Positions 8,787 through 22,699 of a stretch of DNA of 64,000 bases are shown in pieces; positions within the stretch are counted from its first letter, which is position 1; every line of letters starts with the position of its first letter. The stretch spans positions 1 through 64,000 of IMG/VR virus record IMGVR_UViG_3300044959_000131; one strand, given 5' to 3'. The translations under genes and the position numbers were made by a program. The notes under the pieces are model-generated. The model was not told the DNA's origin. It did not search any database and saw only the letters and a program-made list of their open reading frames with translations. This DNA is from a virus.

Positions 8787-8812
8787 AAAAGGGGCCGAGG
8801 CAGCCCCTTCTT
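8785..8812. terminator. bidirectional intrinsic terminator between convergent genes
   Basis: AAGGGGC-7nt-GCCCCTT stem, A-run on the left, TTCTT on the right. Confidence 0.8.
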
Positions 8813-8815
8813 GAC

Positions 8816-9865
8816 TTACTCTACATCCATGACACGGCTGTAACCGGTGATTTTTGCGAGCGCAGCCTGCCCTGCCTCTTTGGCAATGTCATCTAAGGCA
8901 TATTTGCCGATGGTCTCAAGTAGTTCCTTGAGGTTCGACATTGCGTTCGGGTTATTGTTGAGCATCGTCGCTGATGCCTCGTAGTCGATTCCGTCTTTGT
9001 CACTCAAGGTGTAGGCATACTTCTCCTTGATGTCGTCCAATGTCTTTTGGACATCGGAGTTTGTGAAGTCGAGTGACTTGAATACTGCAAAGGCGTCGAA
9101 GAGCGGCTTCAAGTTCTTAGGGTTCAACTTGCCCTGTTTTTCGAGCAGCTCTTTAGCGTGCTTTGCAGCCTCACCGAGCGTCTTGTGCATCAGGGCCGCC
9201 GTTTCCGCAACCCACTCTTGAAGATCGGATTGGAGCTTTTTGTGGGCCTCAATGGCTTGGTCGGCGCTTACCTTGGATAGGCTATCCGCCGCCGAGATTT
9301 TGAACATTCGCCACTCAAACCTGAACTTCGACTTCAGCTCGTCGATATCCAAGAACGATTCTTCGTTCTTGAGATACTGCTTCTTTACCCAGGCATCGAT
9401 TTCGTACTTCTTTTCCTTCGTTATTGGATAGGAGTTCTCGATCCTCTTTGCGGCAATCTTATCCACCTGTGCGTTGAGGACCTCAAGCTGAGCTCTCTTG
9501 AGCTCTGGGTAGTTGTCGATGAGGTTCTTTACTTCCTTCAAGAACTCCAACTTTAGGGCCGTCAGCTTTTCCAGCAGGTCTTCCAAGACTGGATATCTAA
9601 CGAATCGCGCCCCAGCAATTGGAAAATCTGAGGAGCGTGAAGCCAAGGTTGACCTTGCCTTGCTTTCGATCTCCTGAATCCTTGAGATAGCGTCCTTCGG
9701 TAGGAGTTTCTTATGTCCCAGCTTGAAGGCTCCTGGATCCAAGTTTGGCAGGTCCAGATCATCGGCATTGAGCTTCTTGATCGCTGCCCACCTACCTACA
9801 TCGAGGTCGAATAGAATTCCTTGTTTGAAGATTACATCCTCAATTCCTTGATTGACGGAACCCAT
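8816..9865 (-). CDS. DUF3150-like protein
   Basis: LDVGRW..KKL..DDL...KLGHKKLLP...IESKARSTL...FPIAGARFV pattern recalled for this family; last gene of the AAA module. Confidence 0.55.
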   Translation of the reverse strand: MGSVNQGIEDVIFKQGILFDLDVGRWAAIKKLNADDLDLPNLDPGAFKLGHKKLLPKDAISRIQEIESKARSTLASRSSDFPIAGARFVRYPVLEDLLEKLTALKLEFLKEVKNLIDNYPELKRAQLEVLNAQVDKIAAKRIENSYPITKEKKYEIDAWVKKQYLKNEESFLDIDELKSKFRFEWRMFKISAADSLSKVSADQAIEAHKKLQSDLQEWVAETAALMHKTLGEAAKHAKELLEKQGKLNPKNLKPLFDAFAVFKSLDFTNSDVQKTLDDIKEKYAYTLSDKDGIDYEASATMLNNNPNAMSNLKELLETIGKYALDDIAKEAGQAALAKITGYSRVMDVE

Positions 9866-9867
9866 AC

Positions 9868-10116
9868 CTAGTCTCCAACTATCCCAGTTTTCTCTCTAGG
9901 TCCTGGACACGGTCCGTTTTGGCACTCAGGTTTTGTACACGGAATGCACCCTGTGCCGTGGCATATCTCACAGTTATCGCAATTCTCGCCATCGGCATGG
10001 TGCCGAGGACAAGAGGGCCATTTGCACTCGGCGGCGCAAATCTCCCGTCTGTCCTCGGCACCACAGTCCAGGCATCGAGCACCGGGCCATCCTGACCAGC
10101 GGTGTTCTGACATCAC
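9868..10116 (-). CDS. small Cys-rich (12 Cys) metal-binding protein
   Basis: 82 aa; GTG overlaps the stop of the upstream gene. Confidence 0.6.
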   Translation of the reverse strand: MMSEHRWSGWPGARCLDCGAEDRREICAAECKWPSCPRHHADGENCDNCEICHGTGCIPCTKPECQNGPCPGPREKTGIVGD

Positions 10117-10319
10117 TACTTATTCCCGACAGACACCGTTCCCTTAGCGGTGCGAAGAGCCTCTGGCTTCTTGGTCTGTTTCACTACGGAACCGAGCGCC
10201 TTGATGATTCCCTCTGTTTCCTTGAGACATGCAGAGTCGCTGAATCCGTCTGCCTCGATGTTGACGTGTCCCGGGTCCTTAGGATCGATGCTGATGATGA
10301 TTCTCTTCTCGGATGCCAT
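10116..10319 (-). CDS. DUF2997-family protein
   Basis: IIISIDP...VNIEADGFSDSACLKETEGIIKALG; AGGAG SD. Confidence 0.75.
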   Translation of the reverse strand: MASEKRIIISIDPKDPGHVNIEADGFSDSACLKETEGIIKALGSVVKQTKKPEALRTAKGTVSVGNK

Positions 10320-10328
10320 TTGCTTCTC

Positions 10329-10715
10329 CTAGATGTCCATCTTCCGCTCGTACTTTATGGACGAGCCGGTCTTGTGGACCGTAATTGGGATGGACTCATG
10401 CACGATCTGCAGGCTGTCTTCTATTTCTGGAAGTGATTCGCCACTCTTCCACTTCTTGTAGATGTCTTTTGATGACGGACTGGACTCAAGAACCTGTTTG
10501 GTGTGCTTGCATGATCGAATCTTCTCTCCAGTCTTGGCATTCTTCTTTGGGAAGATCCAGCCGGGGCAGTTGCAGGAGAGACTGCCGTCCTCCCAGAGGA
10601 GAGTCTGGTATTGAGCTTTCATACCCTCAACTTCTCTGTTGGAGGTGAAAACCCAACTGTAGATTGCCCTCCCCCTATCTTGTTTCTTGTTGGTTTTTCT
10701 CTTCTTGTCTATCAC
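10329..10715 (-). CDS. SWIM-type zinc-finger protein
   Basis: LSCNCPGW...SCKH. Confidence 0.65.
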   Translation of the reverse strand: MIDKKRKTNKKQDRGRAIYSWVFTSNREVEGMKAQYQTLLWEDGSLSCNCPGWIFPKKNAKTGEKIRSCKHTKQVLESSPSSKDIYKKWKSGESLPEIEDSLQIVHESIPITVHKTGSSIKYERKMDI

Positions 10716-10776
10716 TTGTAATCTCTACTGATTTCTATGCATGAAGAATGTTTTCTTGCGATGTCGTGATCTCGAC

Positions 10777-11223
10777 TCAAGAGTACTTCGTGGCGTAGAG
10801 CTTTATGGTGCCGTCCTTCTCTTTCACGCGCTTCAGTGAGTAGCCCTGGCTCTTGAGCTGCTTTTCCGCCACCCTAGCTGTGTACTCCTGCATGACGAAA
10901 TTCTGCTTCTCGACGTCGAAGTTCCTTTTCTTGTCGAATTCAGAGATGTAGGCCACGTACTTTCCATCCCCGGTCCGTCGATACCCGACGTCGTTGGCCG
11001 CGCTGCCAACATTGTTCCTGCGAATGATGATGTGGCACGGCGGGGCGTAGTCGGGCGAGCTCCTGTCTAGGAGCGACCTGTTGTCACCTTGGTACCCGTA
11101 GAGTGGAGCTCCATCTTCGTGAACTTCGACGTTTCCAGCTCCGAATTGAGCTTCCAAAGCTTCGATGAGCTGCCTTTCGTACTTCTGGAGGAAGTCGACC
11201 TTGATTTCCGTAAAGTGGCTCAT
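10777..11223 (-). CDS. DUF1257 (Ycf35-like) protein
   Basis: MSHFTEIK...LIEALE...CHIIIRR...NDVGYRR..DGKY...YTARVAEKQLKSQGY. Confidence 0.8.
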   Translation of the reverse strand: MSHFTEIKVDFLQKYERQLIEALEAQFGAGNVEVHEDGAPLYGYQGDNRSLLDRSSPDYAPPCHIIIRRNNVGSAANDVGYRRTGDGKYVAYISEFDKKRNFDVEKQNFVMQEYTARVAEKQLKSQGYSLKRVKEKDGTIKLYATKYS

Positions 11224-11243
11224 GTGTAGTTCCCATCTAAGAA

Positions 11244-11274
11244 GGATGCCGGCTCATACTTCGAGCCGGCATCC
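11244..11274 (-). terminator. 12-bp GC-rich hairpin between AAA ATPase and DUF1257 genes
   Basis: GGATGCCGGCTC-7nt-GAGCCGGCATCC, followed by TTCTT on the - strand. Confidence 0.55.
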
Positions 11275-11296
11275 GTTGTACCATACTACTCTGACA

Positions 11297-12847
11297 TCAG
11301 GCATCGATGGCCCGACCGATTGCAACTTCTCGCTTCTTTACGACATTGGCAGGTCGTGTGCGGCCCTTGCACCACTGCTGCATGGCCTCGATTTGTGACT
11401 TCATCATCTCGGACAGAGGAACCGTCTCATCAACGGCCATCTGAATGTCGATCATCCCAAGCTCCCGGTTTGCGGAGAAGGCCGTGAACATGGCCTCGTT
11501 GATGACAGCTTCGATCTCTGCACCCGAGAAGCCCTCGGTGTCCTTGACGAGGCCATCCATGTTGAGGTTCTTGATGAGCTTTTCACGTCCCCTCTTGGCT
11601 AGGTGGATGTGGAAAATCTCCCTCCTTTCGTCTTCGTTCGGCAGGAGCACCGAGAACGTTTCGTCAAAACGACCCTTCCGAAGGAGTTCTGGTGGAAGGG
11701 ACGATACGTCGTTGGCGGTCGCGTAGACGAAGACGGGACTTGTCTTCTCTTGCATCCATGTCAGGAATGTTCCTAGGACACGAGCCCCGACGCCCGAGTC
11801 CAAGTTCCCTGACCCAGAACCGGCGAAGCCCTTCTCAATCTCGTCCAGCCACAAAACGCACGGGGCAACGGCCTCGGCCGTCTGGATGACTCTCCTGGCG
11901 TTTTCCTCGGATGCGCCGACCAGTCCAGCGAATATACGGCCCATGTCACACCGAAGAAGTGGGAGACCGAGCTCTTCGCTGATGGCCTTTGCTCCCAATG
12001 ACTTTCCAGAGCCAGGAGGCCCAACCATGAGAATGCCTTTTGGTGATGGGAGGCCGTATTCTCTGGCTTTCTCAGTGAAAGCCTGCTTCCTCTTGGAAAT
12101 CCATTCCTTGAGGTTTGCCATCCCACCTACCTGCTTCAGTCCATTACCCTGTGGAGGGTAGTAGGTCAAAAGGCCAGTCTTCTTCAATGTCTGGCACTTT
12201 TCCTCCATGACCACCGCTGGGTCCCATCGCTTCGTGCTGTTGTTCATCTTGGACCGAACGTACGACAGTGTGAATGCGTTCTCGGCCTCAGATGTCGTCA
12301 GCCCAAGCGCAGCATCAATCAGTTGTTTCCTTAGCTCTGGACTCGGGATGCTGTCCCCCTTCAGCTTGGTACCATCGATGATACCCTGAATGACTCTGTC
12401 GAGCTCCTCCGGTCCAGGAAGATTCATCTCGACGAGTGCGAACTCCTTTTCAAGCTCTGGAGGAAGCTTGACGACCGGTGATATCACGACAACCGTCTTC
12501 TGGCTGGCCTTGTAGTGCTGTATGAGGTCGATGACCTTGGCCTGGATCCCTGGGTCTTCGAAGAAGTGGTGCATCAGTGGCATTGCCACGATGGACTTCG
12601 GGTTCATCTTTATCATGAAGTCGAGTGCGTTCGATGGTCCGTCTGTGTCATCGACCACCTTTGCGGTCCCCTCCCTCATGAGACCCTTCGATAGAGTCCA
12701 CACCCACAATTCTCGGTTCGTCTCCTTCGCGGCGAGACGAATCTCCTGCAAAGAGCGCATGTACTCCGAGCTCTGCAGGTAGATAGCCGGGTAGCCAGCC
12801 TTCACCTTCTCAATGATGGCCCTAGCGGTGCTGATGTTATTCGCCAT
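11297..12847 (-). CDS. Ycf46-type AAA+ ATPase
   Basis: Walker A GPPGSGKS, Walker B LWLDEIEK, SRH ATAN...PPELLRKGRFD, degenerate N-terminal AAA domain; start refined to ATG 12847. Confidence 0.85.
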   Translation of the reverse strand: MANNISTARAIIEKVKAGYPAIYLQSSEYMRSLQEIRLAAKETNRELWVWTLSKGLMREGTAKVVDDTDGPSNALDFMIKMNPKSIVAMPLMHHFFEDPGIQAKVIDLIQHYKASQKTVVVISPVVKLPPELEKEFALVEMNLPGPEELDRVIQGIIDGTKLKGDSIPSPELRKQLIDAALGLTTSEAENAFTLSYVRSKMNNSTKRWDPAVVMEEKCQTLKKTGLLTYYPPQGNGLKQVGGMANLKEWISKRKQAFTEKAREYGLPSPKGILMVGPPGSGKSLGAKAISEELGLPLLRCDMGRIFAGLVGASEENARRVIQTAEAVAPCVLWLDEIEKGFAGSGSGNLDSGVGARVLGTFLTWMQEKTSPVFVYATANDVSSLPPELLRKGRFDETFSVLLPNEDERREIFHIHLAKRGREKLIKNLNMDGLVKDTEGFSGAEIEAVINEAMFTAFSANRELGMIDIQMAVDETVPLSEMMKSQIEAMQQWCKGRTRPANVVKKREVAIGRAIDA

Positions 12848-13190
12848 TGACTTTCCCCTCACGTTTTGGAGCAAGAAGCTCCCAGAAGAAATTCACTTCC
12901 AATTCCAATGCGATGTTCCGTGTTTTGAAAAACACCAGCTCTCCTGTACGACTACATACGATCTCACTTATCCCGTCCTTTTTAGCGCATCGAATGGCTA
13001 GATTTCGGTCGTACGCAGACCTGACCGTCCATCCCTTCTTTCCGTCTGACTCCTCCCACTCCACATTTGATGCCCGGCAGGATGTCGCTATTTCTCCGCC
13101 GATGTCTTTTGCGAATTGCTCGATGCCATCCTGGTACATCATCTGGATGGTACCGTCCGGTGCAATCTCGACTTCGAATTTGTCCTTCAT
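12837..13190 (-). CDS. hypothetical protein of the Ycf46/DUF1257/DUF2997 module
   Basis: IAPDGTIQMMY...RASNVE...GWT...R..ALE.EV; overlaps both neighbours; start refined to 13190. Confidence 0.7.
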   Translation of the reverse strand: MKDKFEVEIAPDGTIQMMYQDGIEQFAKDIGGEIATSCRASNVEWEESDGKKGWTVRSAYDRNLAIRCAKKDGISEIVCSRTGELVFFKTRNIALELEVNFFWELLAPKREGKVNGE

Positions 13191-13903
13191 CGCTGATGTG
13201 CCTTCTCTATCCGGCTCTTCGATTCTGAGATGATAGAGTCGGCGTTCTCCGCTATCCACTTATGTGGCGACATCACTCCATCATTTGCCTTGTCAACGAG
13301 GTTCTTGATGTAAGTCCCAGTCTCCCCAGACATGTCGGATTCGTCGACAATCTTTTTCATCGCCCATAGGACGGTTATAGAAATTGGTGCGCAGACTGGT
13401 GCTTGGTTCTGTCTGAATTCGGCATCGAGCATCCAGACTTGTTTCTCAAGGTGTATGAGGTTGAGTAGCCGTACACTAGTTCCCTTTGGTGCATCAGGTG
13501 AGCAGTTTTCTGGTGGGCTGGAGACGAAATGGTAGCGGCACATGCTTGGCCTGAACGGGTATATGCTACACTCGTTCTGGTCCGTCAAAAACGGACACCT
13601 CAGCTTCTTCTCAAAGTAGTTCTCTCTGGTGACGTTCTTGTAGCTCGCCGCGATGGCGTTCCTTTTAAGTGCCTCTAGCAGCTCTCCCAGTCTTGGACGA
13701 ATTGACTCGTCCACCAAGAGCCGTTCAGCGATGTTCAGGCCCTCCGTCAGAGTCAGTGTTGCAAGGAGATAACAACAGTGAGCGCAGCCCTTTTTGCAGC
13801 TCACACCTCCAACTTTTTGGATTGCCTCCTGAGCTTTCTTATCTAGTATCTCGAAGAGACGATCAAATTCGTCCGTCAGGAAGACGGTTTCATCCAACGT
13901 CAA
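13187..13903 (-). CDS. YkgJ-family cysteine-cluster (Zn/Fe-chelating) protein
   Basis: CKKGCAHCC...RCPFL...CSIYPFRPSMCR. Confidence 0.85.
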   Translation of the reverse strand: MTLDETVFLTDEFDRLFEILDKKAQEAIQKVGGVSCKKGCAHCCYLLATLTLTEGLNIAERLLVDESIRPRLGELLEALKRNAIAASYKNVTRENYFEKKLRCPFLTDQNECSIYPFRPSMCRYHFVSSPPENCSPDAPKGTSVRLLNLIHLEKQVWMLDAEFRQNQAPVCAPISITVLWAMKKIVDESDMSGETGTYIKNLVDKANDGVMSPHKWIAENADSIISESKSRIEKAHQR

Positions 13904-14014: not shown

Positions 14015-14016
14015 AA

Positions 14017-14090
14017 CGACCCCAGCAGGACTCGAACCTGCAACACCTGGCTTAGAAGGCCAGTGCTCTATCCGATTGAGCTATGGGGCC
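14017..14090 (-). tRNA. tRNA-Arg(UCU)
   Basis: Cloverleaf; CTGGC-CTTCTAA-GCCAG; GGTTCGAGTCC; no encoded CCA. Confidence 0.95.
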
Positions 14091-14114
14091 ATCACCGTGC
14101 TTGTCTTCTACGTG

Positions 14115-14187
14115 TGCCTCCGGCAGGATTCGAACCTGCATCGACCTGGATTTTAAGTCCAGCGCTTTACCATTTAGCTACGGAGGC
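14115..14187 (-). tRNA. tRNA-Leu(UAA), short variable region
   Basis: CTGGA-CTTAAAA-TCCAG; 6-nt variable loop; A73. Confidence 0.9.
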
Positions 14188-14192
14188 TAACT

Positions 14193-14750
14193 GTGAGAGT
14201 CATCATCTATGACAAGAACCCGGGAGTAGGATTCACTCAATGGCTCCTGAAGCTATCTTGGTCTATCGGGTGCTGGTTTCAAAAACTCATCGGAGCAGTA
14301 GATGACTACTACGGAGCATCATCTTGGGATGATGCGAAGCAGTGGCTTCTCTCACGGCCGCGCCCACTGACAGTTATCCAGTACTGGGGTCATGGGAGCC
14401 CCGCTCGAGTGTGGCTTGCTCAGAAACTCGTTCCATCATATGAATGGCTGACGTTGAAAGAAGCTATAGCCCCAGACTCTCTTCTCTGGTTCAGGGCCTG
14501 TAGTGTCTTTCAAGGAAATTCCGGAATCGACTTCTCGAAAGAGCTCGCTGACGGTCTGAACTGCACCATCGCTGGACACACAAGAGTCATCGGGCTATTT
14601 CAAGGTGGTCTCTACACGCGCAAGCCGCACCAACCACCAAGTTGGTCACCGTTGGAGGGAACGACGCGGGGTTGGTTGCCAGACCATTTGAAGTGGTGGA
14701 ACAAGAACACCATATTCTGTCTTAGAACCAAAGTCCCCGAGGGTTGGTAA
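14193..14750 (+). CDS. caspase/CHAT-fold (DUF4347-like) putative cysteine peptidase
   Basis: IQYWGHG...LWFRACS His-Gly / Ala-Cys dyad spacing; GGAGG 6 nt before GTG. Confidence 0.55.
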   Translation: MRVIIYDKNPGVGFTQWLLKLSWSIGCWFQKLIGAVDDYYGASSWDDAKQWLLSRPRPLTVIQYWGHGSPARVWLAQKLVPSYEWLTLKEAIAPDSLLWFRACSVFQGNSGIDFSKELADGLNCTIAGHTRVIGLFQGGLYTRKPHQPPSWSPLEGTTRGWLPDHLKWWNKNTIFCLRTKVPEGW

Positions 14751-14782
14751 AGTAGAAGAATCTGCCGAATTTTCCGTCGTAG

Positions 14783-15049
14783 TCACTTGAATCTCTTGTT
14801 GACGGAAGCGATGAGGGCCTCGGCGAGGTCCACGTACATCTCGATTTCCGTCTTCAACGCACCGAGCTGCGAAGCGGTAAGCCCAAAGCACATGGCTACT
14901 CTTGAGGCCAATATGGCCGTCGCCACATTCAGCAACTCAGCGCGCGCCACCTTCCAGGATTCGAGGTCGGTCGTGGACGCGAGCATCAAAACATCGCTCA
15001 CTGTGACGGGCTTCACTTCTGGTTCCTTCTGTTCCGTTGGTTCTTTCAT
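14783..15049 (-). CDS. hypothetical protein
   Basis: Listed ORF extends into tRNA-Ser; real start is probably 15049 (or 15112). Confidence 0.55.
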   Translation of the reverse strand: MKEPTEQKEPEVKPVTVSDVLMLASTTDLESWKVARAELLNVATAILASRVAMCFGLTASQLGALKTEIEMYVDLAEALIASVNKRFK

Positions 15050-15114
15050 TTCTTCACCCCCTTCTTTTTGACGAACAGTTTCTGGCGCGTTTAGGCTCAC
15101 TGCTTTTGACATTG

Positions 15115-15202
15115 TGGAAGAGGTGAGATTCGAACTCACGGGGCCTTTCAGGGGCCCTCCGGTTTTCAAGACCGGTGCCTTAAGCCGCTCGGCCACTCTT
15201 CC
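15115..15202 (-). tRNA. tRNA-Ser(UGA)
   Basis: CCGGT-CTTGAAA-ACCGG, long variable arm. Confidence 0.95.
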
Positions 15203-15249
15203 ATAGTCCAGCTCATCTGAGACGCCAGACGAGAAGGAGTTATTTCGAT

Positions 15250-15798
15250 TCAGTTGTCGTTATCTATTTCCGTGTGCCAGTAGGCTACGGACTTCATCCA
15301 TTGCTTCCAAGCGTCCGGCATTCCTTTCTGCCATGTAAATGTGATGTTGAATGTGTATGGAAGCTTATTAGGCTTTGTTGGTCTCTGAATCAAGTTCATA
15401 TTTGCTTGCTCAGGAGTACGACCAGCCTTCTTCTGGTTACATGGCGTGCAGCATACAACGACGTTCTCCCATGTCGTCGGACCACCTTGTGACCGTGGAA
15501 TGACGTGATCATAGGTGAAGTCGCTTCTCGGAACCTTGACTCCGCAGTACTGACATTTTCCGTTGTCCCTCAAGTAGACGTTCTCTCTCGAGAATCTGAT
15601 CGCCCTCTTACGTCCTCTGATGGATCTGAGGAGTCTGATCACACACGGCATCTTGAATTGAAGCGTAACGGAGCGAACGATTCTATCTTCGTACTCCTCT
15701 ACGACCTCAACCTTCCCTTCCCAGAGCAGAGTAATCGCCCTCTGCCAAGATACTTTTGCTATCGGCTCATAAGAAATACTCAGGACCAGAGTGTCCAT
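15250..15798 (-). CDS. HNH endonuclease
   Basis: RENVYLRD..KCQYCG...TYDHVIPRSQGG...WENVVVCCTPCNQKK. Confidence 0.9.
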   Translation of the reverse strand: MDTLVLSISYEPIAKVSWQRAITLLWEGKVEVVEEYEDRIVRSVTLQFKMPCVIRLLRSIRGRKRAIRFSRENVYLRDNGKCQYCGVKVPRSDFTYDHVIPRSQGGPTTWENVVVCCTPCNQKKAGRTPEQANMNLIQRPTKPNKLPYTFNITFTWQKGMPDAWKQWMKSVAYWHTEIDNDN

Positions 15799-15818
15799 CC
15801 GTCGAGCCTCATTACCAA

Positions 15819-15897
15819 TGCCCCGGGAGGGAATCGAACCCTCACGCCTGAGCAGCGGATTTTGAGTCCGCCGTGTCTACCGTTCCACCACCGGGGC
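15819..15897 (-). tRNA. tRNA-Leu(CAA)
   Basis: GCGGA-CTCAAAA-TCCGC, extended variable arm. Confidence 0.93.
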
Positions 15898-15899
15898 GT

Positions 15900-16082
15900 T
15901 CACAATTCAATTCGGTACGGTGACCGATGCGCCCCACATTTTGTACACTCCCCAGTAGATTCGAATAGATGCTCAGTCTCAGACTTGCAGTACTCTGTTC
16001 TCTCCTTTCTTCTGAACAAACTTTCGGCCTTATTGGCCTTTCCTAACTCCATATCTTCCTTGGTCAACATGCTTGTCATCAT
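15900..16082 (-). CDS. small hypothetical Zn-finger protein
   Basis: C...H...ECTKCG; GGAG SD; fills the gap between tRNAs. Confidence 0.55.
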   Translation of the reverse strand: MMTSMLTKEDMELGKANKAESLFRRKERTEYCKSETEHLFESTGECTKCGAHRSPYRIEL

Positions 16083-16104
16083 CGTACCTTACTCCACTCC
16101 TTTT

Positions 16105-16186
16105 TGGGCCAGGAGAGACTCGAACTCTCACGCCTGTTAGGCGCCGGATCCTAAGTCCGGTGCGTCTACCATTCCGCCACTAGCCC
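16105..16186 (-). tRNA. tRNA-Leu(UAG)
   Basis: CCGGA-CTTAGGA-TCCGG, long variable arm. Confidence 0.95.
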
Positions 16187-16191
16187 GTACC

Positions 16192-16356
16192 TCAATGAGG
16201 TTTTTTGACCGTGAAGCCAGAACCTATGCACATTCCACTATAGGCATAGTGCGGTGAGTATCCTCCCTTCTTCGTGATATCTACAATTTTCGAACACCAC
16301 GGGCACTTTACCTTCTTTGTCCCACTCTTCGTCTTCTTAACGTTCTTCTTAGGCAT
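16192..16356 (-). CDS. small basic Zn-finger protein
   Basis: KCPWC...H...C; start refined to 16356. Confidence 0.5.
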   Translation of the reverse strand: MPKKNVKKTKSGTKKVKCPWCSKIVDITKKGGYSPHYAYSGMCIGSGFTVKKPH

Positions 16357-16546
16357 GCTCATTCGTAACGTTCTTAGGCACTTGTTCAGGGCTGGAGTGG
16401 CTGGTGAGGTGCCATCCATCACAATACTTACAACGATATGCACGTTGGCCGTGCTTATGAGCTTCTCTTCTCGCTTGGCCTTCGTGCTTGAACTTCACCT
16501 TCCTTGAACAGCTCTTCCACATCTTCCACGCTTTCCAGTCTGTCAT
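16349..16546 (-). CDS. small phage Zn-finger protein
   Basis: CSRKVKF...RAYRCKYCDGWHLTS; start refined to just after tRNA-Val. Confidence 0.65.
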   Translation of the reverse strand: MTDWKAWKMWKSCSRKVKFKHEGQARREAHKHGQRAYRCKYCDGWHLTSHSSPEQVPKNVTNEHA

Positions 16547-16547
16547 G

Positions 16548-16620
16548 TGGCCGACCCCGGAATTGAACCGGGCCCTCCGGTGTGTAAGACCAGCGCTCTC
16601 ACCAAGTGAGCTAGTCAGCC
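16548..16620 (-). tRNA. tRNA-Val(UAC)
   Basis: CTGGT-CTTACAC-ACCGG. Confidence 0.93.
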
Positions 16621-16640
16621 GGTTACGGTTATATATTTTG

Positions 16641-16713
16641 TGGACTCCACGGGAGTCGAACCCGTCACCTCCGCCGTGCAAAGGCGGCGCTCTACCAGAT
16701 GAGCTAGGAGCCC
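16641..16713 (-). tRNA. tRNA-Ala(UGC)
   Basis: CCGCC-TTTGCAC-GGCGG; G3:U70 identity pair present. Confidence 0.95.
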
Positions 16714-16746
16714 AAGTACGGTACCTGTCCGCATCTCCTTAAGTGA

Positions 16747-16789
16747 TAATAGATGGATTCAGACCATAATGGTCTGAATCCATCTATTA
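16747..16789. repeat. perfect inverted repeat, 21-bp arms, 1-nt centre
   Basis: TAATAGATGGATTCAGACCAT-A-ATGGTCTGAATCCATCTATTA. Confidence 0.95.
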
Positions 16790-16816
16790 CTTATACCAAG
16801 AGAGGGAGTCTTTTTC
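16788..16816 (-). promoter_or_regulatory. candidate phage promoter (A-tract...GGTATAAGTA)
   Basis: Same 10-mer recurs at 28394-28403; the core GTATAAGT also occurs at 27778-27785. Confidence 0.5.
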
Positions 16817-16819
16817 GAT

Positions 16820-17059
16820 TCAATCCGAGATGAGCTCGGCTTCGATCTTCTTCTTTTTCAGTCGAGCAAGTGCCTTCTTTGCGGAGCTTTCGTCCTTGAA
16901 TAAGAAGCTGATATCGCGAATCCTTGTAACGAGGTTCGTCCCTGCTCCTTCTTCTGGACGTCCGACGATTCCACGAATAGTGGAGTCGAGACCGAACCCT
17001 GGGTAGCGGTCGATGTCGTAATACACGTTCAGCCGGAACGACTTGGACTGCTTCCTCAT
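16820..17059 (-). CDS. hypothetical protein
   Basis: AAGGAG SD before ATG 17059. Confidence 0.65.
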   Translation of the reverse strand: MRKQSKSFRLNVYYDIDRYPGFGLDSTIRGIVGRPEEGAGTNLVTRIRDISFLFKDESSAKKALARLKKKKIEAELISD

Positions 17060-17104
17060 TACAAGTGCTCTCCTTTGTTTATGGGTCCACAATTCTTGAG
17101 ATCT

Positions 17105-17554
17105 TCAATTCTTGAGATCTTCTACGTACCACTCCAACTGACGTTCGCTCCATCTACGACGAAGTGTGCGAACGAACTTGCGGCCGTGTTTCGATACTAT
17201 CGTAACGTTGATGTACTTCGGTCTTGCGAAGTCGAAGGCCAGTTCCCACATTTTTAATGCGATGCCGCGCCTTCTATACGCCGCCTCGACCCATGTACCA
17301 GCGGCATGTAGTTCCGGCACAGGATGGTCGTCTTTGGTTGGGTACTCGAACACGTTGAATCGAAAGAATCCGATGACTCTATGGTTTGTCGTCGCGACAA
17401 TAACGTAATCGCAAGGAAGATACGCCCACTCCTTGAAAAAATTATGCCCATGATTAGAAATTCTTGGACGTTGAACGTGCGATGTGAAAGGCCCTGCGAG
17501 GTAGTGCGTTGAGCTGATTCTATAGTTGATACGCTTTGTTGGGTCTAGCGTCAT
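17105..17554 (-). CDS. GNAT-family acetyltransferase
   Basis: WVEAAYRRRGIALKMW acetyl-CoA binding motif; start refined to the ATGA overlap at 17554. Confidence 0.7.
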   Translation of the reverse strand: MTLDPTKRINYRISSTHYLAGPFTSHVQRPRISNHGHNFFKEWAYLPCDYVIVATTNHRVIGFFRFNVFEYPTKDDHPVPELHAAGTWVEAAYRRRGIALKMWELAFDFARPKYINVTIVSKHGRKFVRTLRRRWSERQLEWYVEDLKN

Positions 17555-18339
17555 TGCAGCTTCTCCAGCAGCCCAATCCACTCCTGCATGCTGCTGCGGA
17601 GGCAGGACAGACACACTGCGCTCGTCATCCACGAGTCGTTGTACTGCTTCCACGTCCCGAAGTGCCGTCTTTCCCCGCTTTCGCCGTGGCAGACGATGCA
17701 GCGGCCCGGCTCCACGTTTGCGACTGCAAAACCGTTGTTTTCGACGTGGTAGGCCGGTGCATCTCCCTTCGAGTACTGCCCCGGCGGCTGGATGGTGAAG
17801 AAATTTTCCATGCGCGCACCGAGGTGCCACGAGTGACGCACCTCGTCTGGCGAGTCTATGGCCTCACTTTGTGCAAACCAGATGCACGACAACGGCCCAG
17901 TCTTGTGCTGTGCGACGAATGGCTTCAACTCGTCAGGGACTTGGTGCTTTTTCTGTGAGAAAGAAACGGACGCCGTATTGAGACCAACGCGCAACCCGGC
18001 CGCCTCGAAATGCTTTCTCACGTCTTCTTTGTGTTCCCGCGGCATGAGGGGCACGACAATGCGTAGCGTCCGGGCGGGCACCAACTCGTAGTAGCTGTAC
18101 ACCTTGTTCTCTTCTTCGTCTCTCTCGTGGCGCACACAAATTCCCCTGTCGGTGAGGCGCGAGAGAAACAACTCCACCGGGTTGACGTCCGTCCGGTACC
18201 CGTCCTCTCCGGGGAATTTGTAGTGGGTACCGTGTTTGGCGCAGCAGCTTGCAACGTATGCCGGTCTCTGGCTTGCTTCTTCGACTTTCTTTCTGAGCGA
18301 CTCCAGGCTTTGTTTTTCGGATAGGTTGAGAATGCTCAT
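17551..18339 (-). CDS. hypothetical protein with C-terminal Zn-finger
   Basis: CIVCH...CLSC; GGAGG SD. Confidence 0.65.
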   Translation of the reverse strand: MSILNLSEKQSLESLRKKVEEASQRPAYVASCCAKHGTHYKFPGEDGYRTDVNPVELFLSRLTDRGICVRHERDEEENKVYSYYELVPARTLRIVVPLMPREHKEDVRKHFEAAGLRVGLNTASVSFSQKKHQVPDELKPFVAQHKTGPLSCIWFAQSEAIDSPDEVRHSWHLGARMENFFTIQPPGQYSKGDAPAYHVENNGFAVANVEPGRCIVCHGESGERRHFGTWKQYNDSWMTSAVCLSCLRSSMQEWIGLLEKLQ

Positions 18340-18686
18340 TTCGCCTCCGATTCAGATGTCTGATCGTGATCGTCGGAGAGCTCGTCGAGAACGGACCTCA
18401 CGTCTGGAATTTTGCCCTCGTTGATGATGGTCGCCAGGCGATAGATGACCAAATACCAGTCGTGGTTTTCCCACAGCTTCTGGTCCGCCTTTTCGACTTC
18501 GGTGAGATCGTATGCGGTTTTAACGACTAGGTTTCGCAGGAAGGAACGAGATCCATCGTTTTTCTCGATGTTGATATCTCGTTTCAGATGCGCTTCTTTG
18601 GCCTTGTCGAAATCCAACTCCCTTGCCAGCTCGAAGACGTTTTCTCCAAACCGTTCACTGTTCTCGTCCATGTGACCGTTCAACAT
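18336..18686 (-). CDS. hypothetical protein
   Basis: AGGAG SD, overlap-coupled. Confidence 0.65.
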   Translation of the reverse strand: MLNGHMDENSERFGENVFELARELDFDKAKEAHLKRDINIEKNDGSRSFLRNLVVKTAYDLTEVEKADQKLWENHDWYLVIYRLATIINEGKIPDVRSVLDELSDDHDQTSESEAK

Positions 18687-18689
18687 CTC

Positions 18690-19034
18690 CTAACACACTT
18701 TGTCTTTTCCTGCATTCCTACGAGCCATTATTTCAGCGACTAGCTTCTCATGACCGCGCCTTGCATCTTCCTCATTCGTATATCGACGGCACTCTCTCCA
18801 ACCACCGTCGTAATACGCCATCGTCTCGAAGATGACGGGTTTGTCGGACAGCGGATCATGGTCAATTCCAAGCCACACCGTCGAGACGTACTCACCTTCC
18901 TTGGAAAGAGAAGTCCAACAGATTCGCCAGTATGATTCGTCTCCTCCCCTCTTCCGGAAGAACTCGTCTCTAGATAGAGGAGAACCATCTCTGTCGTAGT
19001 AGATATGACTCCTGTCATGGTGTGTTTTGTCCAC
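18690..19034 (-). CDS. conserved phage hypothetical protein
   Basis: VSTVWLGIDH...FETM...RRY...A..GH pattern recalled from other phages. Confidence 0.7.
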   Translation of the reverse strand: MDKTHHDRSHIYYDRDGSPLSRDEFFRKRGGDESYWRICWTSLSKEGEYVSTVWLGIDHDPLSDKPVIFETMAYYDGGWRECRRYTNEEDARRGHEKLVAEIMARRNAGKDKVC

Positions 19035-19078
19035 AGTGCTTACTCCATAAGAGGAACCAGATCATTTCGATGTTTGCT

Positions 19079-19152
19079 TCTGGGTGGCCGGATTCGAACC
19101 GACGACCTTCTGCTCCCAAGGCAGACGCTCTACCAGGCTGAGCCACACCCAG
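19079..19152 (-). tRNA. tRNA-Pro(UGG)
   Basis: TCTGC-CTTGGGA-GCAGA; C1:G72, A73. Confidence 0.95.
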
Positions 19153-19172
19153 TTAATTGCTATCTGACTTAC

Positions 19173-19400
19173 TTATTCTCCGAGGTACGGAACGTTCTCG
19201 TCTTCCGAAAAGATGAAGTACTGAACGCCATTACGGACGATGGTTTTAGGTGGTGAGTGGTTGACCATCTTGACTCGTTGTCTTGGTGGCCAACTTATGA
19301 ACAGCTTCACTTTCTTGTCTGTCTTACTACTCATCGTCCTTTCGTAGCACTCGATGGCACTTCGAAGAGAAGTGTGTGGGTGTCTCCTGCAAAACTTCAT
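19173..19400 (-). CDS. small basic hypothetical protein
   Basis: 75-aa ORF; true start uncertain. Confidence 0.45.
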   Translation of the reverse strand: MKFCRRHPHTSLRSAIECYERTMSSKTDKKVKLFISWPPRQRVKMVNHSPPKTIVRNGVQYFIFSEDENVPYLGE

Positions 19401-19442
19401 CTTACTGACCTTAGAAGTCGAAACTCATAATTAATAATTTCA

Positions 19443-19476
19443 ACGTGTGACTGGGATAATCCCCCCAGTCACACGT
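19443..19476 (-). terminator. 13-bp hairpin downstream of DUF6745-like gene
   Basis: ACGTGTGACTGGG-8nt-CCCAGTCACACGT, followed by an AT-rich tract. Confidence 0.6.
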
Positions 19477-19490
19477 CGTCTGTATTCACC

Positions 19491-20480
19491 TCAAGGTGTT
19501 ACCTCCCATCCGTTCCAAGCAACACGAACTAGGCGCTGGCGACGCATCTCCTCGAGTGTCTCTCCGGGTCCTTCCAACTCCAGCTCGCTAGGCCGCTCAC
19601 AGAGAATGGCAAACTCGCGGTGCGGCCAGATGAGGCAGCAACTCTCACACAGCGCCGCGTAGGCGCGGGCCCGTAACTCCATGTCGCGCCCAATGTCGAG
19701 TCGCAGTACGTCGAGGGCATAGGATACAGCAGCGGGGCCCCACCACCAGCTGCCAACCGAGAACTGGGCCTCAAGGTAGCGCCGCCAGAGGTCGGCCACA
19801 GCAACGCCCGCCGCACTGTGCAACCCGTAGCACACTGCATCGCCAATCGCTCGATGGGTGGTGTTGCTCACTTCGAAGTGAACCACACGTCGCATTACAC
19901 CATGCACGGCACGATGTACCGCTCCATGCACCGTGTCGCCCACAGCGCTACATAATGCATCCTCCAGCTCTCTGGTCACGCTGTCGTGTACCGCGTCATG
20001 CACCGCCGAATGTACATCGGTGTGCATCAAGTCGCGTACCACGCCTTGCACGACAATAAACACTTCGCCCCGTACTGCGCCGCTGACGGAGTCGTACACC
20101 ACGCTGTCACCAGACAGCTGGAGCGCAGCCCGCGCACCCGCGAGGCACGCCACCAACGGTGACGACGCCCAAATGAGTCGCTTTGGAGGATGAAGTCGAG
20201 AGAGGCGATAGCAGGCGAGTAGAGCAGCCTCTGCTAGCGCCCTGTCGGCGGGCTGTATGCATCGGCCAACAGCAATCCACCGTCGTGCGTGCTCGTCGAG
20301 CTGCGCGCGCTCTTCGTCGGTAAGCGACTCCACACGCTTGCGCAGCGGCCCCTCGCGCTGCGGCAACTCGTCCCGGTACAGACGCGCCACGTCGATGCGG
20401 CCCTGCTCATCGTACCAGTCGCCGAGGACTTCGCGTCCATCGGCGGTGGAGGCGAGGGTGAGTATTTCCTGCTGCGTCAC
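19491..20480 (-). CDS. DUF6745-like protein with internal tetrapeptide repeats
   Basis: RWIAVG...ADRALAE...PPKRLIWASSP; xVHD/AVHG repeats; C-terminal WPHREFAILCERP. Confidence 0.7.
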   Translation of the reverse strand: MTQQEILTLASTADGREVLGDWYDEQGRIDVARLYRDELPQREGPLRKRVESLTDEERAQLDEHARRWIAVGRCIQPADRALAEAALLACYRLSRLHPPKRLIWASSPLVACLAGARAALQLSGDSVVYDSVSGAVRGEVFIVVQGVVRDLMHTDVHSAVHDAVHDSVTRELEDALCSAVGDTVHGAVHRAVHGVMRRVVHFEVSNTTHRAIGDAVCYGLHSAAGVAVADLWRRYLEAQFSVGSWWWGPAAVSYALDVLRLDIGRDMELRARAYAALCESCCLIWPHREFAILCERPSELELEGPGETLEEMRRQRLVRVAWNGWEVTP

Positions 20481-20542
20481 AGAATCACCTCGACGAGGAG
20501 AAAATCATCGCGCAGCCTCTGTCGGCATGGTGCCCTCCATTC

Positions 20543-20797
20543 CTACGCCTTGAGCGGTGATGATGGCGTAGTCACCTCTTGTTTCCTACGAGGCACAGCC
20601 AGCAGGCGCTCCCCTTCTGCCTTGTACTCCGCCCTCTTCTTCTCGTTTTTCTCTTTCTTCGCTCGATCAAGAAACATCATCGCTTGTTGGCAGCGGTGGC
20701 ATTCCTTACCCAGACCCTTGTGGCCACACTTGAACAATCGACGCATGTACGTACTCCCTTTTGGTGGATACTTCGTTTCGTGACGCACGACCATCAT
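20543..20797 (-). CDS. small basic Zn-binding hypothetical protein
   Basis: FKCGH...CHRC. Confidence 0.55.
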   Translation of the reverse strand: MMVVRHETKYPPKGSTYMRRLFKCGHKGLGKECHRCQQAMMFLDRAKKEKNEKKRAEYKAEGERLLAVPRRKQEVTTPSSPLKA

Positions 20798-20803
20798 GTG
20801 TAG

Positions 20804-21082
20804 TCAGAGCGTCAAACTCACTGTGACGCGCCAACGACAATTCGGACAAATACTACTCCAAGCAATTTGATCAAAGCGTGGTCCTTGGAGCAGTAGAACC
20901 AGTGGTCTCCCACAGACACATGTCGTGGGCATCTCTGTAAAGTTCATCGGCTTAGTCTTCGACTTCCTGTGACAGCGACTTTTCGCGGAAAACTCTTTCG
21001 AAGAGGCCTTCTTCTCTTTCTCCTTCGTTATCTTCATCTTGAGCATCGTGTCCTCGGATCCAGATCCGTCCAAATAGCCCAC
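20804..21082 (-). CDS. small Zn-ribbon hypothetical protein
   Basis: TCVCG...ICPNC. Confidence 0.5.
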   Translation of the reverse strand: MGYLDGSGSEDTMLKMKITKEKEKKASSKEFSAKSRCHRKSKTKPMNFTEMPTTCVCGRPLVLLLQGPRFDQIAWSSICPNCRWRVTVSLTL

Positions 21083-21098
21083 ACGATATCGAACGTAC

Positions 21099-21470
21099 CT
21101 ACTCCCTCCTTTCTAGAATTGAATCGATTACCTCTATGATCTCTCGTCGAGATATTGGCTTCGTCAATACTGCGTTCGCACCGGCCAAGCTCGAATCTCG
21201 TTGTAAATCTCCGCTCCCGCCCGTCAAAACGACGATGGGCGTATCTTTGAGTTTTTCATCTGCCCGAATTGATCTCACCAAGGCGATTCCATCCATCACC
21301 GGCATCATGAGGTCTGTGATGATGAGGTCTGGCTCGAACTGCCTGGCCATTCCATATCCCTCAAGACCGTTCTTGGCCTCGTATATTTTGTAGCTCAGTC
21401 GAACGAGGAAGAGCTTGAGAATTGTACGGATCGGTTCCTCGTCCTCAACGATGAGAATCTTCTTTGTCAT
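21099..21470 (-). CDS. single-domain response regulator receiver (CheY-like)
   Basis: ILIVEDE, DLIITDLMMPVMDG (phospho-Asp), VVLTG, LTKP. Confidence 0.92.
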   Translation of the reverse strand: MTKKILIVEDEEPIRTILKLFLVRLSYKIYEAKNGLEGYGMARQFEPDLIITDLMMPVMDGIALVRSIRADEKLKDTPIVVLTGGSGDLQRDSSLAGANAVLTKPISRREIIEVIDSILERRE

Positions 21471-21510
21471 GAGTGTAGTTATTTTCTCATGACTTGATAT
21501 GTGGGAAGTA

Positions 21511-21583
21511 TTGGCCCGGCGGGACTCGAACCCGCATCTGTTCGGTTATGAGCCGACGGCTCTACCAATTGAGCTACAGGCCA
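21511..21583 (-). tRNA. tRNA(CAU), probably Ile2 (lysidine type)
   Basis: CTCATAA loop; C4:G69 and C5:G68 (TilS determinants); not initiator-like. Confidence 0.8.
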
Positions 21584-21584
21584 G

Positions 21585-21656
21585 AGCCCACAGAGGGATT
21601 CGAACCCCCGACCTGTCGCTTACAAAGCGAAAGCTCTACCACTGAGCTATGTGGGC
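21585..21656 (-). tRNA. tRNA-Thr(UGU)
   Basis: TCGC-TTTGTAA-GCGA. Confidence 0.93.
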
Positions 21657-21662
21657 TTCGTT

Positions 21663-21733
21663 CTGGGGCGCAGGGACTCGAACCCTGATGCGTGGCTTCA
21701 AAGGCCACTGTCCTACCTTTAGACGACACCCCA
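21663..21733 (-). tRNA. tRNA-Gln(UUG)
   Basis: GTGGC-CTTTGAA-GCCAC; U1:A72, G73. Confidence 0.93.
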
Positions 21734-21740
21734 ACTACAT

Positions 21741-22217
21741 TTATTTTAGATGGACGACAGTAACCATCGTCTCAGCACCGGCGTCGAAGATTTGATCTTC
21801 GGTGTCAAATATTCCCTCGTCCCTGTAGAACTCTTTGTAGACGATTCGATTGATACCAGCGTTGGCGATTAGCTTGAAGCATGTCCAACATGGAGATGTT
21901 GTAGTGTAGATTGTCGATCCATCGAGTCTTACTCCGTTTTTCGCGGCTTGTACGATAGCGTTGGCCTCTGCATGAACCGTCCTCACGCAGTGACCATTGT
22001 GCATCATGCAGCCAATGTCTATATTTCCATCCTCGCAGTGTAGGGATCCTCTGATAGAACCATTGTAGCCAGTTGAAAGAATGATTCGGTCCCGGACGAT
22101 GACGGCGCCTACGTGTTTCCTTGGGCAAGTTGCTCGCGTCGATACTTCTCGCGCAATTCTCATGAAGTAACGGTCCCAGTCTAACCTCTTCTTCTGAAGC
22201 TTCTTCTTTCTCTTCAT
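21741..22217 (-). CDS. dCMP deaminase (ComEB/cytidine-deoxycytidylate deaminase family)
   Basis: RATCPRKHVGAVIV...GYNG...HAEANA...PCWTC. Confidence 0.92.
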   Translation of the reverse strand: MKRKKKLQKKRLDWDRYFMRIAREVSTRATCPRKHVGAVIVRDRIILSTGYNGSIRGSLHCEDGNIDIGCMMHNGHCVRTVHAEANAIVQAAKNGVRLDGSTIYTTTSPCWTCFKLIANAGINRIVYKEFYRDEGIFDTEDQIFDAGAETMVTVVHLK

Positions 22218-22247
22218 AAAGTCTCAAAGATGATGAAGGAGTTGAAG

Positions 22248-22319
22248 AGCGGGCGAAGGGAATCGAACCCTCGACATTCAGCTTGGAAGGCTGACGTTCT
22301 ACCTCTGAACTACGCCCGC
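22248..22319 (-). tRNA. tRNA-Gly(UCC)
   Basis: TCAGC-CTTCCAA-GCTGA; U73. Confidence 0.95.
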
Positions 22320-22320
22320 A

Positions 22321-22627
22321 GACGACATCGTAAAGAGTAACTATGTCGGTTAGAGGTTCACTGCTAACTTCACATAGACCATTCCCGCATAGGTCGCGAC
22401 CCTAGTCCTCTCCGAATCTACCCCGCTCATTTCGAGCTTTCACGGGCTCGCCATGAGCGGATTCGGCTGTGCTTAACCTCTCCAGGGGCCTAGACAAGGA
22501 TGAGTTGTTGTCTAGGGATTCAAGGATTGGCGTCCACTTTATGTGTGGCTCGCTTACACCACGGGTAGCAGTCTATACAGTTGAGTTATCTATAAGCATT
22601 TGTGCTCGATTACTACAATCAAATGAT
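22321..22627 (-). ncRNA. candidate structured non-coding RNA of unknown class
   Basis: No credible ORF; nested stems 22412-22466, 9-bp stem 22489-22516, stems 22341-22377; lies between tRNA-Lys and tRNA-Gly. Confidence 0.55.
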
Positions 22628-22699
22628 TACCGCCGGAGGGAATTGAACCCTCGACCCTTCGCTTAAAAGGCGAGTGCTCTACCACTGAGCTACGGCGGT
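22628..22699 (-). tRNA. tRNA-Lys(UUU)
   Basis: TCGC-CTTTTAA-GCGA. Confidence 0.93.

Follow-up and report, generated by a model that had tools for sequence, protein, structure and literature searches.

We describe a putative protein-remodeling module encoded by seven tightly coupled open reading frames (ORFs) that occupy positions 8816-13190, all on the minus strand, of a phage genome (IMG/VR record IMGVR_UViG_3300044959_000131) from a hot-spring or microbial-mat metagenome. The record is 176,945 bp long (CheckV 93%, with a terminase-type match), and the window analyzed here is its first 64 kb. In the order of transcription, the seven genes encode a protein with a conserved RASxVE motif, an AAA+ ATPase, a DUF1257 protein, a protein with a SWIM-type zinc finger signature, a DUF2997 protein, a small protein with 12 cysteines, and a DUF3150 protein. 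The interpretation that we tentatively prefer, even if we put its chances at somewhat below even, is that the ATPase is an unfoldase or segregase of the Ycf46 type that is assisted by a DUF1257-DUF2997 cofactor, is served by partner proteins addressed through a common C-terminal tail, and probably acts on DNA-bound complexes. We found no description of the AAA/DUF1257/DUF2997 gene set in phages or plasmids in papers or preprints. The arrangement given in a preliminary description of this region, namely seven co-oriented, coupled genes closed by a hairpin (8789-8809), was recovered in full when the ORFs, their junctions and the hairpin were read in the sequence.

The predicted central component of the module is the ATPase (11297-12847; 516 amino acids (aa) from the ATG, or 525 aa from a TTG at 12874), which matches the Pfam AAA domain PF00004 over residues 281-408 (E 1e-27) and AAA_lid_3 (E 1e-8), as well as the phage family phrog_8638 (4e-138). 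The Walker A (GPPGSGKS), Walker B (LWLDEIEK) and sensor 1 (ATAND) motifs and the arginines (RKGRFD) are all present, and the pore loop, [LIWY]-V-G, is conserved across 38 sequences. With these motifs, the arginine fingers and the pore loop intact, the ATPase would seem to be a functional classic-clade motor that threads its substrates, in agreement with the intact C-terminal motor reported previously. The same description considered the protein to be a double AAA ATPase. The N-terminal half lacks a P-loop and aligns only weakly to the protein's own C-terminal half (hhalign E 1e-3, N126-198 to C147-220), across the helper-motif and lid region; this similarity fits a degenerate first AAA domain or tier, so the proposal of a double AAA layout agrees with our results. 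A profile search of the N-terminal half against the PDB gave no match below E 0.07. In five viral loci (L062, L069, L072, L073 and L075), the ATPase is encoded by two ORFs, one for the N-terminal and one for the C-terminal part, that lie 50 to about 1100 nucleotides (nt) apart and could represent split genes, inserted elements or frameshifts.

Cyanobacterial and other cellular proteins match the ATPase at 42-46% identity over query residues 15-500. The cyanobacterial relatives include proteins from Trichodesmium, Microcystis, Anabaena and Microcoleus, and the more than 594 cellular relatives are distributed among cyanobacteria, Chloroflexota, Armatimonadota, Myxococcales, Planctomycetota, Firmicutes and archaea. 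We infer that the phage protein belongs to the Ycf46 family, with the cyanobacterial matches taken as ycf46 from the previously described operon (PMC13683863, PMC7496141). Relatives also occur in cultured phages (165 records, with Rhizobium, Rhodobacter, Aeromonas and Mycobacterium phages among them) and on plasmids (724 records, of which 598 are conjugative); most of the plasmid records come from Klebsiella, Escherichia, Citrobacter and Salmonella. The family is therefore common outside phototrophs and on plasmids, which argues against a photosynthesis-specific role, in line with the argument made earlier from the phage-borne copy alone.

The predicted partners that appear to be most closely tied to the ATPase are the DUF1257 and DUF2997 proteins. 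The DUF1257 (Ycf35-like) protein (10777-11223, minus strand; 148 aa) passes the Pfam threshold marginally (PF06868, 23.2 bits vs a cut-off of 22.2) and is joined by a local profile to proteins of the cultured phages L338C (36.8 bits) and HJ05 (34.6 bits). Its AlphaFold2 (AF2) model, with a predicted local distance difference test (pLDDT) value of 94.4, is a compact alpha/beta domain that retrieved no significant match among solved structures (Foldseek E >0.1; best VIA Z 6.0, below the noise mark of 8); the best VIA rows, all within noise, are the IntS9/IntS11 C-terminal domain, KA1 and TBP-like folds. The DUF2997 protein (10116-10319, minus strand; 67 aa) is assigned more comfortably (PF11211, 32.4 bits vs 24.1) and forms a predicted beta-beta-alpha mini-domain of about 45 residues; in an alignment of 17 sequences, C31 is invariant, and G17 and G25 are conserved in at least 90%. 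In one viral locus (L010:8476-9048), DUF1257 and DUF2997 are naturally fused in a single protein, which is the strongest indication in this analysis that they function jointly.

To assess how regularly these genes occur together, we searched 73 other viral loci around ATPase relatives with iterated local profiles and surveyed 80 cellular ATPase loci with 7-kb flanks. Among the viral loci, DUF1257 was found near the ATPase in 19-22, DUF2997 in 19-20, DUF3150 in 11, the RASxVE protein in nine (including the cultured phages L338C and HJ05) and the SWIM-signature protein in six. Carriers among cultured phages include Rhizobium phage L338C, Aeromonas phage HJ05, Rhodobacter phage RcTiptonus and Mycobacterium phage Corndog. 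The gene order varies, with DUF3150 either before or after the ATPase; in L338C and HJ05, the order is ATPase, a gene without assignment, DUF1257, DUF2997 and RASxVE, followed by RepO-like and helicase (DnaB) genes. The co-conservation that the preliminary description had made a test of its proposal thus holds in that the module recurs, in changing order, in many unrelated phages, but it does not extend to the gene for the Cys-rich protein, and DUF1257 is missing from many of the phages. In cells, DUF1257 lies within the flanks of the ATPase gene in 50 of the 80 loci, most of them cyanobacterial, and in cyanobacteria it directly follows the ATPase, so that the claimed ycf46-DUF1257 neighborhood is well founded. 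DUF3150, RASxVE and SWIM were not found in any of the 80 cellular Ycf46 loci; in the combined set of 73 viral and 80 cellular loci, these three are accessories confined to the viral ones. Judged by these neighborhoods, the old core of the system would consist of the ATPase and DUF1257, often along with DUF2997. In one cyanobacterium, Spirulina sp. (L137), there are two DUF1257 genes, one directly after ycf46 and another, about 3 kb away, that forms a pair with DUF2997 and lies on the opposite strand, an arrangement that fits two paralogous DUF1257 roles in cyanobacteria.

The presence of this ATPase family in phages and in the 598 conjugative plasmid records, and the variation of accessory genes around a conserved core, as in defense systems, bring to mind a conflict system, in which the ATPase would be a sensor or effector in superinfection exclusion, abortive infection or anti-defense, to the benefit of the mobile element. 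The weak similarity of the AAA domain to IetA models points in the same direction, but the PADLOC match to IetA is restricted to the generic AAA domain, the score against the IetA model NF042959 is 82.8 bits compared with the 510 required, no other module protein matches PADLOC, and a partner gene of any known system is missing. Profile scans detected no nuclease, protease or toxin domain in the module, which in the cultured phages is located among replication genes, and in cyanobacteria the ATPase is a conserved chromosomal gene of a stress operon (PMC7496141). We therefore regard a conflict system as quite improbable.

The viral accessory proteins are a heterogeneous set. The DUF3150 protein (8816-9865, minus strand; 349 aa) is assigned by Pfam (PF11348, residues 15-280, 58.1 bits vs 24.9), and 92 of its 99 relatives carry the domain. 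Its AF2 model (pLDDT 74.9) consists of a small N-terminal sheet, long helices and a C-terminal four-helix bundle, with a disordered tail (residues 330-349, pLDDT <50). Foldseek gave no match for this model, and the VIA matches were all to four-helix bundles of a generic kind, whose best Z, 9.8, falls short of the mark that applies to helical proteins (about 13); tblastn searches with this protein against cultured phages and against plasmids gave no match. Profile searches of the PDB with DUF3150, DUF1257 and DUF2997 likewise gave no match below E 0.07. A predicted complex of the ATPase with DUF3150 scored 0.00 against a mark of 0.32, a result that carries no weight either way. The RASxVE protein (12837-13190, minus strand; 117 aa) is a recurrent phage partner that belongs to no Pfam family and matches no PHROG or NCBIfam entry; the motif named in the preliminary description is real, with R39, A40, S41, V43 and E44 invariant in seven homologs, along with W54, R91 and A94. 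None of its 22 relatives has a Pfam domain, and the nearest Atlas clusters are viral. In the SWIM-signature protein (10329-10715, minus strand; 128 aa), the CxCxnCxH signature (C-N-C-P-G-W...C-K-H) is conserved in all eight homologous ORFs from six loci. There was no match to PF04434 up to E 1, and a homolog (from L008) scored 11.9 bits vs the cut-off of 19.6, so the SWIM assignment is a putative one based on the signature. Accordingly, of the families named originally, AAA, DUF1257, DUF2997 and DUF3150 are supported by Pfam, whereas SWIM is not.

The feature that appears to link the motor to several of these otherwise dissimilar proteins is a short peptide at the extreme C-terminus, of the form [FY]-x-R-x-hydrophobic-[DE]-hydrophobic, that is common to the ATPase, DUF3150 and SWIM proteins. 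In the window, the ATPase ends in IGRAIDA (I-G-R-A-I-D-A, 11300-11320), DUF3150 in YSRVMDVE (G-Y-S-R-V-M-D-V-E, 8819-8842) and the SWIM protein in YERKMDI (Y-E-R-K-M-D-I, 10332-10352), all on the minus strand. With a strict pattern ([RK]-x-hydrophobic-[DE]-hydrophobic plus 0-2 further residues), the tail was found in 33 of 81 ATPase ORFs (41%), four of 11 DUF3150 ORFs and two of eight SWIM ORFs, vs 28 of 4808 other ORFs (0.58%). The motif also ends 86 of the 99 database relatives of DUF3150, with the consensus G-[ED]-F-[KR]-R-[VF]-[VI]-[ED]-V, and the last 20 residues of DUF3150 are disordered in the AF2 model, as expected for a short linear motif. The tail is not confined to viruses: cyanobacterial Ycf46 proteins end in the near-invariant SVAEYQR[ML]EF, and the ATPases of Chloroflexota, Myxococcales and gut Firmicutes in LRQMEL, GGRIEL and GGRRLDI, respectively, and therefore the tail seems to be an old property of the family.

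At the background of about 0.6-0.9% per ORF, the probability that three of the seven module proteins share the tail by chance is about 2e-5. This bears on the simplest alternative, that the seven genes are mere neighbors in an early region without a common function. The ATPase does occur alone in many phages, as would be expected in that case, but the same families recur around it in distant phages, plasmids and bacteria while the order changes, one locus has a DUF1257-DUF2997 fusion, the start and stop codons are coupled, and the tail is rare; this alternative looks very unlikely indeed.

Tails of this kind also occur on other neighbors of the ATPase, which were identified with Pfam: HHH_3 (ComEA-like) proteins in five independent loci (viral L009 and cellular L098, L135, L143 and L155), YpsA/DprA-type SLOG proteins in L006 and L008, and a WGR protein and a DUF6744 protein in L014. 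In six phage loci (L018, L022, L024, L032, L034 and L035), the arginine-type tail of the ATPase is replaced by an acidic one (EEDEEL, EDEDL, DEDDDL or EEEEL). Local profiles did not detect DUF1257 or DUF2997 in the flanks of these six loci; at the level of whole records, Pfam searches found DUF1257 far from the ATPase in L024 and L032 and none in the other four. In the phage described here, 11 of 1419 raw ORFs fit a loose tail pattern, without a clear genome-wide enrichment. One match in the window, a minus-strand ORF at 32086-32406 ending in PRSMDVA, was rejected as a chance match, being antisense within two plus-strand structural genes. Another, at 170814-171500 on the minus strand of the same genome (L160:2315-3001), is a Lys/Arg/Glu-rich protein of 228 aa without a Pfam match that ends in W-R-P-I-R-R-S-M-D-I, in the tail dialect of the module; a circularly permuted genome would place it only about 15 kb away from the module.

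Taken together, these observations suggest the following scheme. The module would be centered on a hexameric, classic-clade AAA+ ATPase of the Ycf46 family, an unfoldase or segregase in which the first ring is inactive and the second active. DUF1257 and DUF2997 would be its oldest partners, most likely forming a heterodimeric cofactor. A second class of partners, here DUF3150 and SWIM, would be defined by the short C-terminal peptide on a disordered linker, and this tail could serve as a docking or recognition tag that draws the tagged proteins and the motor to a common site, the simplest candidate for which is the ATPase ring itself. A machine of this kind would probably use ATP to remodel DNA-bound proteins, or to strip them off, in the course of phage or plasmid DNA metabolism, because the tagged partners are mostly of nucleic-acid-binding types and the module is found among genes for replication and nucleotide metabolism.

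Several considerations weigh against this scheme. The binding of the module proteins to each other is a prediction, and the link to DNA is drawn from the domain types of the neighbors; protein binding is also known for SWIM domains. Neither the DUF1257 nor the DUF3150 model has a significant match among solved structures, so that they offer no clue to activity. In most of the phage records that have the ATPase only, including complete genomes, Pfam searches of the whole record detected no DUF1257; many phages thus carry the ATPase with no detectable DUF1257, and the trio is not obligatory. The tails of the ATPase and its neighbors are no more alike within a locus than between loci (2.28 of 7 positions identical vs 2.17 in shuffled sets; permutation p 0.29), so that co-variation of tail dialects within loci is not supported and co-evolution gives no hint of a receptor. 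Similarly, in the viral loci, the tail of the ATPase is uncorrelated with the presence of DUF1257 or DUF2997 nearby (p 0.6), which lends no support to the two as tail receptors; in cellular loci, the association of the tail with DUF1257/DUF2997 is strong but confounded by the many cyanobacterial loci. Finally, the cyanobacterial ycf46 operon is tied to stress and growth arrest rather than to DNA (PMC13683863, PMC7496141).

The lack of co-variation within loci fits a conserved receptor outside the module. This receptor might be an external ring, for example a peptidase of the host or the phage, to which the ATPase and its partners would attach by their tails; unfolded proteins would then be fed to proteolysis, with the tagged partners acting as alternative caps or regulators. 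A precedent is the attachment of PAN, Mpa, Cdc48, Bpa and Blm10 to the 20S proteasome through HbYX/GQYL tails. As in the proteasome activators, the tail is located at the extreme C-terminus of a classic-clade AAA protein and of unrelated partners, and many phage ATPases without DUF1257 and DUF2997 still keep it. However, the tails have no penultimate tyrosine and often extend by one or two extra residues, and are thus neither HbYX nor GQYL; moreover, there is no peptidase gene among the scanned neighbors of the module, and the hosts span phyla with different sets of proteases. On balance, docking onto an external ring appears improbable.

Returning to the scheme of a Ycf46-type motor with tail-addressed partners, a broader version, which we consider rather doubtful, can be formulated. 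The tail code and its dialects would address a changing set of DNA-binding adaptors (SWIM, HhH, WGR, SLOG/DprA and DUF3150) to one Ycf46-type segregase that strips or remodels DNA-bound proteins, and the same machine would operate in phages, in IncC plasmids, and in cyanobacteria and plastids, where it corresponds to the ycf46/ycf35 stress operon. If true, this would provide the first mechanism for the long-orphaned ycf46 and ycf35 genes. Ycf46 and Ycf35 have for decades been conserved 'hypothetical chloroplast frames' with only indirect phenotypes. The phage offers a compact version of the system, and the short tail on the motor and its partners is a handle that can be deleted, transplanted or used as bait. 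The module is also found in the backbone of multidrug-resistance plasmids of the IncC group, and what it does may therefore be relevant to plasmids as well as to phage infection and the stress responses of cyanobacteria. Overall, the interpretation in the preliminary description, a self-contained protein-remodeling machine used by mobile elements, is partly supported.

The junctions between the genes, most of which were read directly, show how tightly the operon is packed. The ATG of the ATPase sits 11 nt within the RASxVE gene; the gap between the ATPase and DUF1257 is 73 nt, that between SWIM and DUF2997 is 9 nt, and that between the gene for the Cys-rich protein and DUF3150 is 2 nt; the junction of DUF2997 with the gene for the Cys-rich protein is TAGTGATG. 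Two hairpins were read directly. Between the convergent genes at the end of the operon, there is a GC-rich hairpin with a 7-bp stem and a 7-nt loop (8789-8809), preceded by an A-run and followed by T's, which is likely to be a bidirectional terminator; it is not among the terminators listed by a simple consensus scan. Between the ATPase and DUF1257 genes, there is a perfect 12-bp GC-rich hairpin with a 7-nt loop (11244-11274, minus strand), possibly an attenuator or an RNA-stability element; through partial termination or RNA processing, it could tune how much motor is made relative to the partners. Upstream, an ATGA overlap, also read directly, joins the stop codon of another gene to the start of RASxVE. 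This accessory gene (13187-13903, minus strand; 238 aa; PF03692 E 1.8e-7) encodes a CxxCxxCC protein that is YkgJ-like and a putative zinc- or iron-binding protein. Because of the ATGA overlap and the same arrangement in the closest relative, L041, the operon probably begins with this gene, one earlier than RASxVE, in the same transcription unit; the position of the gene is kept in L041, and a homolog is found near the ATPase in L019.

The small Cys-rich protein (9868-10116, minus strand), with 12 cysteines in 82 aa and a CxxCxGxG-like motif, matched no family in profile scans. It has only five relatives, with about 50% identity, and the gene is missing between DUF2997 and DUF3150 in the nearest loci, L041 and L006; it therefore appears to be a lineage-specific, local insertion rather than a conserved member of the module. 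The possibility that it is a detached Cys-rich extension of the RASxVE homolog in L006 was rejected, as the two are not similar. A 66-nt stretch in this gene (9998-10063) is 78% identical to its own reverse complement and may reflect a repeated Cys-codon pattern or a structured element.

The occurrence of the coupled CxxCxxCC protein upstream and of the 12-Cys protein within the operon, along with the invariant Cys31 in the G-[FY]-x-G-x-x-C motif of DUF2997, suggests another scenario, in which the DUF2997 cysteine would handle a metal, an iron-sulfur cluster or a radical together with the Cys-rich partners, and the ATPase would be an activase or chaperone in redox or metal-cluster maturation. 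The retention of a duf2997-ycf35-fed7 cluster, in which fed7 is a ferredoxin gene, in cyanobacteria is compatible with this scenario (PMC4284462). However, no match to the radical-SAM (PF04055) or Fer4_12 (PF13353) families was found in the whole 176,945-bp record, the gene for the Cys-rich protein is lineage-specific, the CxxCxxCC protein is encoded near the ATPase in only two other loci, and a single cysteine cannot hold a cluster alone. Furthermore, such a role would leave the tails and the DNA-binding partners unexplained, and we consider it to be of low probability.

The wider surroundings of the module in the window are as follows. The module is located downstream of, and on the same (minus) strand as, genes for an ATP-dependent DNA ligase (22740-24032; phrog_114, 1e-79) and a ribonucleotide reductase of 982 aa (24662-27610; phrog_367, 1e-183). 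The minus strand immediately upstream of the module (14016-22699) carries a cluster of 13 tRNA genes (Arg, Leu x3, Ser, Val, Ala, Pro, Met, Thr, Gln, Gly and Lys) with small ORFs among them, one of which (15250-15798) is HNH endonuclease-like by eye. Further on, the plus strand carries a run of very large ORFs (28473-63223) that encode proteins of 1167, 1069, 1559, 903, 1420 and 1753 aa. Seven ORFs at 28473-53020 were scanned, a set without the three largest (1559, 1420 and 1753 aa), and the only PHROG match was a sigma-factor-like protein (38074-39039). This phage is far from characterized phages.

Among known machines, the closest general analogies for the motor are Cdc48/p97/VAT and Vps4/CdvC, segregases of the classic AAA+ clade to which adaptors or clients are brought by short linear motifs. 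With these, the phage ATPase shares the classic AAA domain, the aromatic/hydrophobic-Val-Gly pore loop and the arginine fingers, a two-tier layout with one predicted inactive tier, and partners that bear a short peptide at one end, attached through a disordered linker. The differences are substantial: the match to the Cdc48 model TIGR01243 reaches 123.8 bits vs the cut-off of 802.65, with only one AAA domain aligned; the profile libraries detect neither a Cdc48-type N domain nor an MIT domain; and the phage ATPase carries the same tail as its partners. The sequence of the phage tail also differs from the VIM, VBM, SHP and MIM motifs. The HbYX/GQYL tails of PAN, the Rpt subunits, Mpa, Bpa and Blm10 provide a second analogy, as C-terminal peptides present both on an AAA ATPase and on unrelated helical-bundle proteins; the C-terminal four-helix bundle of DUF3150 aligns to Bpa, at noise level (Z 7.7). 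In contrast to HbYX/GQYL, the phage tails (GRAIDA, SRVMDVE and ERKMDI) lack the penultimate Tyr, and no gene for a 20S or other peptidase was seen in the module.

The most direct comparison is with the cyanobacterial genes. In Synechocystis, slr0373-slr0374(ycf46)-slr0376 behaves as a general stress operon, and mutants lacking ycf46 are affected in CO2 use (PMC7496141); the three-gene ycf46 operon of Synechococcus (Synpcc7942_0416-0418) responds to RpaB and ppGpp, which induce it when growth is arrested, and an interaction between Ycf46 and KaiC has been reported (PMC13683863). The phage and cyanobacterial ATPases are similar over nearly their full length, with the identity given above, and have related tails (IGRAIDA vs EYQR[ML]EF); in cyanobacteria, DUF1257 directly follows the ATPase, and the phage DUF1257 and DUF2997 proteins both pass the Pfam thresholds. 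Unlike the cyanobacterial set, the phage-borne copy combines the ATPase, DUF1257 and DUF2997 in one operon, whereas in L137, the one cyanobacterial locus with both, DUF2997 is paired with the second DUF1257 away from ycf46, and the duf2997-ycf35-fed7 cluster of cyanobacteria has been described as a separate one (PMC4284462); in addition, the phage operon includes DUF3150, RASxVE and SWIM.

A counterpart of the phage operon is found on the IncC plasmid pR55 of Klebsiella pneumoniae (NC_016976.1, 20495-26182; L161), which encodes an ATPase 32% identical to the phage protein over 94% of the query. The tail dialect differs, the plasmid ATPase ending in RKLAIED and the partners in KRKIILD, and the tagged partners look membrane-type, with hydrophobic N-termini, rather than being DUF3150 or SWIM proteins; there was no Pfam DUF3150 match. 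A 115-aa protein of the same plasmid is RASxVE-like by eye only. Nevertheless, the overall plan is that of the phage module: the ATPase is followed by a DUF1257-like gene (local HMM (hidden Markov model) match, 8.5e-9), by DUF2997, and then by three proteins that share one common C-terminal peptide.

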